Of a DNA stretch of 64,000 nucleotides, positions 4,701 through 62,900 are shown piece after piece (within the stretch, counting starts at the first letter, position 1; each line of letters opens with the position of its first letter). The stretch is from Octopus vulgaris. Taxonomy: Eukaryota. The notes below the pieces were generated by a model. It did not search any database and was not told where the DNA came from. It saw only the letters and a program-made list of their open reading frames with translations. The position numbers and the translations under genes are program-made. The stretch covers positions 23,498,001 to 23,562,000 of the forward strand of contig OX597819.1 of NCBI GenBank assembly GCA_951406725.2, read 5' to 3'.

Positions 4701-4905
4701 TGTGACCTCGTGAGCACCGTCAGCAATTTTTTTCCTCTGTCTTCCCTTCTCGGGATCTTTCCTTCTCCTTTGTTTCCGACGAAGAGCTCCGCTCGAAACG
4801 TTAAACCCTCCTTCTTCCCTTCTTTCCGGAGCGTCCAATAATACTTTATTTGTTCCACGTCCTCGCGTTGCTGTGTTTTTTTGTGTTTTCTTGTTTGGAT
4901 TAACT
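4701..4905 (+). mobile_element. Short Penelope-like terminal-repeat element with minimal hammerhead motif, in (TA)n
   Basis: gttt-CCGACGA-a-gagc-tcc-gctc-GAAA-cg-TT-aaac at 4772-4806; TA runs on both sides. Confidence 0.65.
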
Positions 4906-5255
4906 ATATATATATATAGATAGATATCCCTATATGTACACGTACTTATGAGTACGCAAGTGCAATGCAAAATGGAAAAAATAGCAGTCGAATACCAAAG
5001 GCAGAGTTAAATATAGTGTTTATTGACGCAGAAACGTCACAAATCGTTACTCTGAGTTTCACGTAATAGATCATCAGATAGCTGTGAACTCTAGAAACAG
5101 TGGAATGGTTTTAGATGGTGCAATAACAATTATTCTATAAATGCTCAAATGACAGTTTAAAAGTAATTGGATAAGGGAAGTGTCATATTTCACTTATTTA
5201 TTACAAATAATATTTCACTTATTTATATTATTTAGTGAAAATAATATAAATAGTT

Positions 5256-5625
5256 GCAGGAGTGGCTATATGGTAAGAAGCTAGCTTCCTAACCACATGG
5301 TTCCAGGTTCAGTCCCCCTGCGTGGCACCTTAGGGAAGTGTCTTCTGCTATAGACACGGGCCGACCAAGGTCTTGTGAGTGAATTTGTTAGGTAAAAACT
5401 GAAAGAAGCCCATCTTGTGTGTGTACATAAATATGTGGGGGTGATGAAAAAATCCTGGCTTTAAGGGTGTCACGAAAGACTTAGTAGAAGGGCCAACCTT
5501 CCGAGTTCTTTGACAGGGTTTAGAAAAACTGAAGGACCGAATCGAATGGACTCGATTCTTTCTACTCAAAATTCTTCAAGACGGTGCCGCAACCTAATGA
5601 TTGAAACACGTAAAAGATAAAGGAT
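5256..5625 (+). mobile_element. SINE family A interrupted by a mariner-type MITE fragment (~5433-5540)
   Basis: SINE head at 5256-5430; the insert resembles the reverse complement of 59120-59238; decayed SINE tail follows. Confidence 0.65.
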
Positions 5626-5649
5626 AACAAAGAAATTCAAATCCAGTAA

Positions 5650-7017
5650 CTTCAGAAAACTGGGATCACTAATTCAGAGAACTGGGGTCACTAATTCAGA
5701 AAACTGAAGTTACTAATTCATAAAACTGGGATCACTAATTCGGAAAACTGAGGTCACTAATTCAGAAAACTGGGGCCACTAACTCACAAAACTGGGGCCA
5801 CTAATTCGGAAAACTGGGGTCACTAATTCGGAAAACTGGAGTCACTAATTCAGAGAACTGGGGTCACTAATTCAGAAAACTGGAGTCACTAATTCGGAAA
5901 ACTGAGGTCACTAATTCAGAAAACTGGGGTCACTAATTCGGAAAACTGAGGTCACTAATTCGGAAAACTGGGGTCACTAATTCCGAAAGCTGGGATCACT
6001 AATTAGGAAAACTGTGATCACTAATTCGGAAAACTGGGGTCACTAATTCGGAACACTGGGGCAACTAATTCGGAAAACTGGGGTCACTGATTCGGAACAC
6101 TGAGGTCACTGATTCGGAAAACTGCGGTCACTAATTCGGAAAACTGAGGTCACTAATTCGGAAAACTGGGGTCACCAATTCGGAAAACTGAGGTCACTGA
6201 TTCGGAAAACTGGGGCCACTAATTCAGAGAACTGGGGTTACCAATTCGGAAAACTGGGGTCACTGATTCGGAAAACTGCGGTCACCAATTCGGAACACTG
6301 GTGTCACCAATTCGGAAAACTGGGATCACCAATTCGGAAAACTGAGGTCACTAATTCGGAAAACTGGGGTCACCAATTCGGAAAACTACGGTCGCTAATT
6401 CGGAAAACTGGTCTCACCAATTCGGAAAACTGAGGTCACTGATTCGGAAAACTGGGGTCACCAATTCGGAAAACTGGGGTCACCAATTCAGAAAACTGGT
6501 GTCACCAATTCGGAAAACTGGGGTCACTAATTCGGAAAACTGGGGCCACTAATTCGAAAAACTGGGGCCACTAATTCGAAAAACTGGGGTCACCAATTCG
6601 GAAAACTGAGGTCACCAATTCAGAAAACTGGGGTCACCAATTCGGAAAACTGAGGTCACCAATTCAGAAAACTGGGGTCACCAATTCGGAAAACTGAGGT
6701 CACTGATTCGGAAAACTGGGGTCACTAATTCGGAGAACTGGGGTCACCAATTCGGAAAACTGGGGTCACCAATTCGGAAAACTGGGGTCACCAATTCGGA
6801 AAACTGGGGCCACTAATTCGGAAAACTGGGGTCACCAATTCGGAAAACTGGGGTCACTAATTCGGAAAACTGGGGTCACTAATTCGGAAAACTGTGGTCA
6901 CTAATTCAGAAGCTTAGGACCACTAGTTCAAAAAACCTGGAGTCACTAATTCAGAAAACTGGGGCCACTAATTAAGAAAAGTGGGGTCACTAATTCAGAA
7001 ATCTGGGACCACTAATT
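5650..7017. repeat. 22-bp minisatellite (AATTCGGAAAACTGGGGTCACT)n, about 60 copies
   Basis: Head-to-tail units read directly, with no unique spacers. Confidence 0.97.
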
Positions 7018-7162
7018 TGTGAACGATGTTTTACACTTTCGTCAATATCAGCGGCAGTGGACCAAACAATGATGGTAACTTTAAAAGATGCAATAAAATA
7101 TTAGTCGTGTGAAGATAGCATTATGATGTCTAACTTCACTAACGTCATACCAATGGTCGTAG

Positions 7163-7546
7163 TGGAGGCGCAATTGCCCAGTGGTTAGGGCAGTGGACTC
7201 GCGGTCATACGATCGCGGTTTCGATTCCCAGACCGGGCGTTGTGAGTGTTTATTGAGCGAAAACACCTAAAGCTCCACGAGGCTCCGGCAGGGGATGGTG
7301 GTGATCCCTGCTGTACTCTTTCACCACAACTTTCTCTCACTCTTACTTCCTGTTTCTGTTGTACCTGTATTTCAAGGGGCCGGCCTTGTCACTCTCTGTG
7401 TCACGCTGAATATCCCCGAGAACTACGTTGAGGGTACACGTGTCTGTGGAGTGCTCAGCCACTTACACGTTAATTTCACGAGCAGGCTGTTCCGTTGATT
7501 CGGATCAACCGGAACCCTCATCGTCGTAACCGACGGAGTGCTTCCA
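7163..7546 (+). mobile_element. tRNA-derived SINE family B
   Basis: tRNA-like head GGAGGCGCAATTGCCCAGTGGTTAGGG...GTTTCGATTCCC; TSD ACCAATGGTCGT at 7149-7160 and 7547-7558. Confidence 0.92.
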
Positions 7547-60880: not shown

Positions 60881-60941
60881 TAAAAACCAGCTTATATATA
60901 TATATATATATATATATATATATATATATATATATATATAT

Positions 60942-61935
60942 ATACAAAATAAGAAAATGGAGAAATACATCGAAATCAAATAACAATTACCAGATAATAC
61001 TCAATCACATACTTTATTAAACCACCATATAAGAAGCTATAAGGTTAAACATAATAATGCAGGGTAAAGCAGTGTACATGAAGGAGTGTACATAAAATAG
61101 TAATGTTATACAATAAGTAGAATACGTATAATAGAACATAAATATAAGTACACATAAATATAAATATAGACTATATTTTACAGCTGTTTCGGCCATGTAG
61201 ATAAGCATGTCTCATTCAACTCATATTAGCCATGTGTGGTAGGTCAAAATGTAGTTATAAATTAGTCATTTACAAAAACATCCTAAGGCCTCTTCGGAGA
61301 TTACAAATTAGATTACATATATACTTATAAAGGTGTGGGTATATACCCATAATAAAACTTATACATATATACCTTTATAAGTATATATGTAATCTAATTT
61401 GTAATCTCCGAAGAGGCCTTAGGATGTTTTTGTAAATGTCTCATTTATAACTACATATTGACCTACCACAAATGGCTAATATGAGTTGAATGAGACACGC
61501 TTATCTACATAGCCGAAACAGCTGTAAGATATAGTCTATATTTATATTTATGTGTACTTATATTTATGTTCTATTATACGTATTCTACTTATTGTATAAC
61601 ATTACTATTTTATGTACACTCCTTCATGTACACTGCTTTATTCTGCATTATTATGTTTAACCTTATAGCTTCTTATATGGTGGTTTAATAAAGTATGTGA
61701 TTGAGTATTATCTGGTAACTGATATTTGATTTCGATGTATTTCTCCATTTTCTTATTTTGTATTATGAATTTGTGGTAAAACATTTTACCTTTGCCCATA
61801 TAATACAATAAATGAATTAATTGTATCGCAATTCTTAACATTTATGTATTAACTTTGTTGGGTACCTCACTAGCAGTATATTGGATATATGGTATCCCAT
61901 GGTGGGTTGCATTTACAACCCCTATCTCAATTTGT
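60942..61935. mobile_element. Inverted pair of hammerhead-bearing Penelope-like terminal repeats in (TA)n
   Basis: Arms 60942-61334 and 61371-61763; motif atct-CCGAAGA-ggcc...agcc-GAAA-cagctg-TA-agat at 61404-61530. Confidence 0.75.
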
Positions 61936-62366
61936 ATATATATATATATATTATATATATATATATATATATATATATATATATATATATATATATATAT
62001 ATATATATATATATACATACATATATATACATAAATAAAAGTACTGCATTATCCGTTTCTAGGTTTTTCATTTTTCAGATGTTCTTCGTAGACAATTTTT
62101 TTCATGTTTGTTGCACACACGCATCTTTACTAGTACATACGCAGTGAAGCTATACATTAGCGTCGTATTTATTACGTTCACTATTTTCCAGTAAATATCG
62201 GTGTTTCGTTGTGCCATTTATTTACTTTTATGTATAATTTTACCCTTACGGGCTATCCTTTACTGGAAAGCAATACTCTCGTATTGCATTACTATTTTCA
62301 TTATATATATATATATATATGTGTGTGTGTGTGTGTGTGTGTGTGTGTGTGTGTGTGTGTGTATAT

Positions 62367-62632
62367 ATACAAAATCCAGAGGGCTGAACACTAAAAGTGG
62401 ACAGCCTATATCCTAAACATAGACGTCAAATCGCCATTTACCACGAAGAATGTGTTCTCAAGAAATCGTTTTTTATTTCTTATATTTTCATGTGTCTTGC
62501 TTATTTTTACACTTTGGTTTTTTTGCAGAGATTTTTCTTGAGAACACATTCTTCGTGGTGAATGGCGATTTGACGTCTATGTTTAGCATATAGGCTGTCC
62601 ACTTTTAGTAGTCAGCCCTCTAAATTTTGTAT
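62367..62632. repeat. Foldback with ~98-bp arms in TA/TG microsatellite
   Basis: 62367-62465 is the reverse complement of ~62533-62632. Confidence 0.85.
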
Positions 62633-62702
62633 ATACATATATATATATATATATATATATATATATATATATATATATATATATATATATATATATATAT
62701 AT

Positions 62703-62900
62703 AAAACAAAGTGGAGTTGTAGGGTACCGCACGAGTGGAATTATATACGAAAGATGGTTTGAAAATGCAATTTTAAAAGATGTTTATTTACTTTACCGGT
62801 TTCACCCTTTGGAAAAAGATTGTCAAAAGTAACATGTAAAAGTTTGGTTGCGTTAATTATTGGTTGTTACAAAATGCTGATATAAACGTAATTTAAACCG
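62703..62900 (-). mobile_element. Short Penelope-like terminal repeat with hammerhead variant
   Basis: tactt-TTGACAA-tcttt-ttcc-aaagg-gt-GAAA-ccgg-TA-aagta at 62789-62831; abuts (TA)n. The far boundary is uncertain. Confidence 0.65.

Follow-up and report, generated by a model that had tools for sequence, protein, structure and literature searches.

Hammerhead motifs of ten repeat families in a 64-kb window of Octopus vulgaris: mostly the probable 3' ends of truncated Penelope-like elements

The window analysed here is a stretch of 64 kb (38% G+C) of the Octopus vulgaris genome (assembly GCA_951406725.2, 2.80 Gb in 227 contigs; contig OX597819.1, positions 23,498,001 to 23,562,000 of the forward strand), which is crowded with microsatellites and fragments of long interspersed nuclear elements (LINEs). 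The original prediction, made from its letters, placed nine hammerhead-like ribozyme motifs there and ascribed them to non-autonomous retroelements. All nine are confirmed at the coordinates claimed, and the majority sequences of their families are proper type I hammerheads with a palindromic stem III. In the reading that we prefer, to which we give a probability of about 0.88, seven of the nine motifs mark the 3' ends of Penelope-like elements that code for proteins; these ends are present as short stubs, which most likely arose from 5'-truncated reverse transcription, and the motif at 36223 belongs to a 364-bp unit likely moved by the same enzymes. The term non-autonomous is mostly wrong, since seven of the nine families (A, C, D, E, G, H and I) continue upstream, in sense, into Penelope-like open reading frames (ORFs) with a GIY-YIG endonuclease; it holds for family F, a stand-alone non-coding unit. 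The attribution to Penelope-like or retrozyme-type hammerheads is borne out by the context of the families. The window copies are mostly 5'-truncated stubs of such elements and have their known anatomy, including a choice of two 3' ends, arms in inverted orientation and flanking (TA)n.

Concerning the motifs themselves, the strict descriptor comprised the core, stem II, GAAA, a palindromic stem III, UH and a stem I of at least 4 bp, with known one-base insertions allowed. The motif frequency is above the shuffled background: four window copies match intact (4772, 40484, 61404 and 62788), whereas 100 local dinucleotide shuffles gave 0.06 on average and never as many as four. The 475 family loci scanned, which total 1.90 Mb and were mostly picked for these families, contain 266 strict matches, compared with three in a single shuffle. 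That these motifs arose by chance where DNA is AT-rich and full of repeats could be argued from a loose descriptor, which yields 1.3 matches per shuffled window, and from the seven of the 11 window copies that fail the strict scan, being decayed or weak (a first, simpler descriptor gave one strict and four to seven loose matches in the window). Both comparisons with shuffles speak against this explanation, and it is refuted by the family majorities, which make better hammerheads than the window copies; we regard it as almost certainly wrong. All ten majorities carry the core Y3-U4-G5-A6-N7-R8-A9, G12-A13-A14 and U16.1-H17 with a matched 3-8 pair, apart from C at position 4 in A and H. A stem I of 4-6 bp and a stem II of at least 3 bp are present in nine, the exception being family E (stem I of 3 bp). 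Stem III is palindromic in all ten, allowing a double hammerhead; the palindrome of family B has one central base.

By blastn, no similarity is found between any two of the ten family sequences, in line with the claim that the motifs are unrelated. No hammerhead is found among the 93 Rfam matches to the window at E<=5, and the expectation that standard annotation would miss the motifs is thus correct for Rfam; the Rfam microRNA matches in the window were rejected as microsatellite artefacts. The tenth family, J, is absent from the original prediction and turned up in the descriptor scan. About 20 further motif types, unsought, with other stems and palindromes are found in the flanks of loci L015-L461, 15 of them as single matches. 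Paired changes (TAAC/GTTA to AGAC/GTCT; ACACGTGT to ACGCGCGT) preserve stems I and III in related families. The set had also been called dense: the window does contain 11 copies, but the density across the genome may have been overstated, as the flanks of the fetched loci give ~30 copies per Mb for the ten families, or ~2 per 64 kb. This estimate is rough, biased and low for diverged families, and it is zero for B, C and J, probably due to their diverged window copies; the window is probably richer in these families than the genome average. Rough, flank-based copy numbers are ~2,000-26,000 each for six families.

For each motif family, 211 to 3,234 first-look candidates were obtained, of which the best 40 were scored and 12-30 loci fetched; parents of all families were sought with three proteins of GIY-YIG endonuclease elements as queries. 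The genome is rich in such endonucleases (16,647, 4,032 and 13,569 first-look candidates in the endonuclease protein searches, 150 scored in each), with open frames of up to ~860 amino acids (aa), and two families have close relatives which keep frames of 750-860 aa. Both the reverse transcriptase and the C-terminal GIY-YIG domain are seen upstream for families A, C, D and I; for E, G and H the endonuclease lies in sense, and reverse-transcriptase pieces are found in the same or other loci. Judged from their protein sequences, the parents appear to be Neptune-type for A, E and I, Hydra-type for C, G and H, and Penelope/Poseidon-type for D.

Among the Neptune-type families, the young family I has a stub (62704..62879, minus strand) that stops in (TA)n and contains a hammerhead at 62788-62832(-) with a U3-A8 core and a predicted cut at 62794. 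Its motif is located 1.9-2.05 kb past a Neptune-type ORF, in sense, in nine of ten loci chosen for long frames; the protein has a CX4CxxC linker and a Pfam RVT_1 match, many frames are 776-847 aa long, and a PDB sequence search with this protein gave no match. Family A (4702..4904, plus strand) is flanked by two (TA)n tracts; the hammerhead at 4772-4806 has an extra A after position 9 and C at position 4, with the cut predicted after 4802. A Neptune-type ORF is found 2.5-3.5 kb upstream, in sense, through CA-rich sequence in three of ten upstream stretches (L476, L483 and L484), which share 3.8-4.5 kb with one another, ORF included; this parent also has the CX4CxxC linker, which in both A and I is a likeness to the Neptune clade. 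A fixed 5' end, or a fixed 200-bp unit, was considered for family A and dropped after longer copies were found. Family E (30663..30895, plus strand) is the weakest family: the hammerhead at 30805-30840 (predicted cut 30837) has a U3-A8 core in the majority and a stem I of 3 bp, a GIY-YIG remnant lies 570-630 nt upstream of the query start in four of 20 loci (L209, L215, L219 and L224), and the Neptune-type assignment is made via ~50% identity to the family I protein.

Among the Hydra-type families, C has a main arm (9471..11232, minus strand), a 3' untranslated region (UTR) with an internal duplication, and an inverted arm (11787..12022, plus strand) in which the tail is present and the hammerhead absent, with AAT/TAT repeats between the two. 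The hammerhead at 9630-9733(-) has a long stem II arm and a predicted cut at 9634; the majority has a 12-bp stem II, in which GTGGCTATATTT pairs with AAATATAGCCAC. A GIY-YIG frame is found in the flanks of two loci. The decayed element in L268 reads in one direction through reverse transcriptase, endonuclease, 3' UTR, hammerhead, (TA)n and tail, with an inverted arm in front; the link is seen again in L282, and L134 is listed as a parent too. An ORF antisense to the family C hammerhead was dropped, its apparent orientation being explained by inverted arms. An intact relative, L258, is 59-63% identical to the family C parent and contains DKT, KWK (for RWK) and CTCRDKSNC, motifs that fit the Hydra clade as it is defined in the covered portions of Craig et al. 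2021 (PMC8557442). The CxCX5C motif is present in the H parent and L258, whereas the parent copies of C and G have a degraded version; L258 alone contains DKT and KWK. The stub of family G (40452..41053, minus strand) contains an intact hammerhead at 40484-40577(-), whose stem II arm is long and whose cut is predicted at 40490. In L331/L123 and L323, a related endonuclease is found in sense and ~2 kb upstream. Family H has a main arm (61371..61934, plus strand) with a 171-nt tail and an intact hammerhead at 61404-61530(+), the cut being predicted after 61526, and an inverted short arm (60942..61334, minus strand) whose hammerhead at 61175-61301(-) has one stem I change; both arms stop in (TA)n, the short one 237 nt past the predicted cut at 61179. 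An endonuclease ORF lies between two tandem H copies in L397/L394, and also upstream in sense in L386.

A young Hydra-type family outside the window has frames of 828-862 aa and its own hammerhead (L258:1436-1478; L262:1632-1674 and 7942-7984) with the palindrome ACAATTGT; the period is 6.3 kb, and the 3' UTR measures ~3.5 kb. The Hydra-type proteins of L258 and L268 also have an asparagine-rich insertion, from AAT repeats, between reverse transcriptase and endonuclease.

Family D (25614..25755, plus strand) is the 3' end of a Penelope/Poseidon-type element. Its hammerhead at 25662-25707 is decayed in the window (CAAA for GAAA; predicted cut 25702) and the majority has an intact core (CTGATGA...GAAACGTT). 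An endonuclease ORF is followed by the hammerhead within 600 nt, in sense, in 25 of 30 loci; no CX4CxxC linker was seen in this parent. The remaining two stubs are both on the minus strand. Family B (4945..5090, bounds approximate) is an old repeat of ~75% identity with a decayed hammerhead at ~5041-5082 (predicted cut 5048), and its majority reads ACTGT CTGATGA ... GAAACTCTGAGTA ACAG. Family J (31900..32012, extending further) has a hammerhead at 31950-31996(-) with a 10-nt palindrome and a predicted cut at 31956; the palindrome ACATCGATGT is found in most of 20 copies.

The families could instead be non-autonomous elements, similar to short interspersed nuclear elements (SINEs) or retrozymes, which were amplified on their own as short units. 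This is true for family F, which has a 364-bp period, no ORF match in 30 of 30 loci and a folding z of -7.8; also, short A copies cluster near one 5' point and the parents of B and J are missing. For the set as a whole we find it very unlikely: seven families run into coding elements, their 5' ends lie at graded distances, of tens up to thousands of bases, and D and I follow an ORF in 25/30 and 9/10 loci, respectively. Several points nevertheless weigh against an origin of the stubs from Penelope-like elements. The links for A, G, H and E rest on two to four loci each; family A has no linked ORF in seven of the ten upstream stretches of the second set, nor in any of the eight of the first, so that short non-autonomous subfamilies may be hidden among the stubs; and no parent protein was found for B or J in 20 loci each, with the three protein queries. 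Pfam gave no relevant match for the Hydra-type proteins or the ORF fragments, and the clade names Hydra, Neptune, Penelope and Poseidon come from motifs and identity. Only the best 40 DNA matches were scored per search, so the samples lean toward young, query-like copies. Concerning the hammerheads, C at position 4 in families A and H is a deviation from the core, and folding of single motifs relative to shuffles gives z above -2 in nine of 11 copies and below -2 in two, as expected if stem III stays open.

The 3' ends of the copies fall at two fixed points in several families. Of 28 F copies with a downstream part, 13 end at unit position 33-39 and 15 at 85-99, and in each of the 13 F inverted pairs in which both ends are present, a long arm is combined with a short one, as in the H pair of the window. 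Family H ends ~237 or ~404 nt past the cut, and family I ~50 or ~89 nt; the two ends are clear for H and I and visible for C, E and G, where the bins are blurred by flanking repeats. No second 3' end was seen for family A. Inverted or partial-tandem 5'-truncated arms are found for C, D, E, G, H and I, and neither was seen for family A among the first 30 loci. All inserted copies were copied across an intact cut site; thus, the template was uncut RNA or a religated circle.

A mechanism in line with these ends can be proposed from Frangieh et al. 2024 and Craig et al. 2021. The element protein would nick AT-rich or (TA)n DNA, and reverse transcription would start at two internal RNA sites, giving two 3' ends and a tail. 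Reverse transcription would often stop early and leave 5'-truncated stubs, and the hammerhead, ~40-240 nt from the nearer end, would survive in most of them because it is close to the start point. The palindromic stem III is predicted to stay open in a single copy, so that a lone stub would be inactive. If two copies of the same family lay in one tandem transcript, they would form a double hammerhead by pairing and release a unit-length RNA, perhaps with protein help; we favour such cutting as a dimer, by analogy with the model published by Cervera and De la Pena 2014 (PMC4209133, in the portions covered).

The original prediction had most of the motifs abutting (TA)n microsatellites. This is so for most families; family D (25662) is not TA-linked, and the window copy at 9630 adjoins (TC)n. 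Nine of the 11 window copies have (TA)4 within 450 nt downstream (background 22%); the window copy of family J has no TA link. When (TA)4 was counted within 100 nt of the query end (140 nt for F), window copy included, it followed the family end in 30/30 A, 29/30 I, 28/30 F, 17/20 E, 8/20 B and 0/25 D copies, with backgrounds of 8-18%; the Hydra-type families show an insertion bias against the same backgrounds (C 28/30, G 19/30 and H 11/12). Family D follows an AAT/AAC repeat internal to the element. By analogy with the (TA)n preference described in the covered portions of Craig et al. 2021 (PMC8557442), the tracts would be an insertion target rather than a product. Copies of family A also lie in or beside TA tracts that end I, H and G copies (L101, L325, L388, L002 and L119), a placement which suggests repeated insertion into the same microsatellites.

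Family F differs from the others in its non-coding 364-bp unit, copies of which are joined head to tail. The window contains one unit plus 96 nt, with 4 nt deleted (35995..36454, minus strand); the hammerhead at 36223-36263(-) has a U3-A8 core and a predicted cut at 36227, and the majority has a perfect 6-bp stem I. Among 30 loci, none of which matches the three element proteins, a partial unit lies upstream in 16, a downstream part is present in 28 and an inverted arm in 14, and three span two hammerheads, both intact in L045 and L051; the longest locus has ~2.05 units and no longer arrays were seen. The unit folds far better than shuffles (z -7.8). In the predicted fold of the genomic dimers, the double hammerhead is the minimum-energy structure for L051 and lies within 0.3 kcal/mol of it for L045, with predicted inter-unit stem III probabilities of 0.68 and 0.52, respectively. 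Small variants are reportedly cleaved as dimers, a result associated with Lunse and the year 2017. Family F is a retrozyme candidate which, going by these folds, likely moves as a self-cutting RNA, and it was likely moved by the enzymes of Penelope-like elements.

Animal retrozymes lacking long terminal repeats (non-LTR retrozymes), according to the covered portions of Cervera and De la Pena 2020 (PMC7229834) and Li et al. 2026 (bioRxiv 10.64898/2026.07.22.740005), have short non-coding units with a type I hammerhead, joined head to tail, and a proposed Penelope-like helper; the latter work argues that they derive from Penelope-like terminal repeats and reports cleavage in one of nine tested dimers. 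Family F resembles them in its non-coding unit, type I hammerhead, head-to-tail copies, strong folding and proposed Penelope-like helper; it differs in its one to two dispersed units without long arrays, its Penelope-type tails and inversions, and its variant core. A bolder proposal, which we put forward tentatively and hold to be doubtful, is that F is an active cephalopod retrozyme whose RNA is excised through a double hammerhead and closed into a circle, a TA-targeting Penelope-like enzyme then copying around this circle from two internal points that are fixed, and that the ~30 palindromes act as a self-recognition code by which each family cuts only with its own kind. If this is true, the template form and the priming sites of many families would be recorded side by side in the genome.

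The hammerheads may also be passengers, kept only by their nearness to the start of reverse transcription; this agrees with the stub origin and differs on function alone. Each inserted copy was copied across an intact cut, and the 16 upstream partial units of F start at 79-328, always more than 5 nt away from the cut, which is at 224. In the covered portions of the literature, ribozyme mutants of the anole element inserted normally in vitro, with no RNA ends at the cut (PMC11167929), and Naiads thrive without canonical hammerheads (PMC8557442). On the other hand, the core and a perfect palindrome are kept in ~30 motif types with differing stems, and family I variants change mainly in loop 2 and at the cut base; an intact cut site would also result if the RNA were religated into a circle. 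We therefore consider a purely passenger role possible, though less likely than a function as dimers, which we favour.

Many of the features described here have precedents. Cervera and De la Pena 2014 (PMC4209133), in the portions covered, report an additional base behind position 9, a U3-A8 core and a palindromic helix III. They also describe that a single genome can contain many families, that truncated elements leave single motifs and that pairs occur on opposite strands, and they propose cutting as a dimer by same-family hammerheads in a tandem transcript. No cephalopod is named in those portions among the minimal hammerheads of metazoan Penelope-like terminal repeats (pLTRs); compared with these, the stem II arms of octopus families C, G and H measure ~60-100 nt, and position 4 is occupied by C in A and H. 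For Octopus bimaculoides, the covered portions of Craig et al. 2021 (PMC8557442) describe the element Hydra-1_Obim, with a (TA)n preference and a hammerhead. The octopus elements resemble the Hydra clade in (TA)n insertion and in the position of the hammerhead, which is close to the 3' end, and partly in their motifs, with DKT seen in L258 and CxCX5C in L258 and the H parent; in G and B, stem II is closed by U...U as in many rows of File S2, and the B majority resembles Hydra-2_aMil. None of the ten octopus motifs equals the Hydra-1_oBim motif listed in those portions. The octopus Hydra-type elements are also longer (6.3-kb period in L262 compared with published lengths mostly <3 kb) because of long repetitive 3' UTRs, and their tails reach 171 nt, compared with 30-40 nt in the published ones covered. 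In the anole Poseidon element (Frangieh et al. 2024, PMC11167929, portions covered), two internal starts of reverse transcription give the tail, and AT-rich targets are preferred; the octopus families are similar in ending at two fixed points and in their AT-rich targets. The hammerhead of the anole element overlaps the ORF start, whereas in octopus it follows the ORF end by 0.2-3.5 kb. Thus, the observed motif features and a TA-targeting octopus Hydra element are already published (Cervera 2014; Craig 2021). A search that left Repbase, Dfam and subscription papers outside its scope found no paper cataloguing these octopus families or a cephalopod retrozyme, and only Craig 2021 was relevant on ribozymes; Repbase, Dfam or the library of PMC13282606 may hold these families.

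Other features of the window include a 124-aa frame at 39828-40199(-), directly downstream of the family G stub, with a Pfam match to a C19orf12-like protein below the cut-off. A fold-back element with long inverted arms is located at 62365-62627, between TA/TG tracts, and no hammerhead was seen in it. An inverted repeat arrangement gives a long hairpin at 4247-4505, with an Rfam MIR839 match far below the cut-off; this repeat resembles a mariner-type transposon end. A minisatellite (22-bp unit, 62 copies) is found at 5651-7017, and decayed LINE pieces with Pfam matches to endonuclease and reverse transcriptase at 15066-15674 and 44825-46238.

Of these results, the most useful are the candidate retrozyme of 364 bp, the length of the tails and of the stem II arms, and how varied the palindromes are. 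The stubs are abundant and unseen by Rfam, and octopus repeat libraries may carry them as unclassified SINEs; a 2026 annotation (PMC13282606, portions covered) lists 893 unclassified SINE families among the recently active ones. As for the role of the hammerhead in Penelope-like elements, the motif is kept almost everywhere, yet it was dispensable in the one system that tests insertion in vitro. In this genome, young elements with open frames (such as those of family I) and a compact 364-bp unit with a predicted active dimer fold make that role directly testable.

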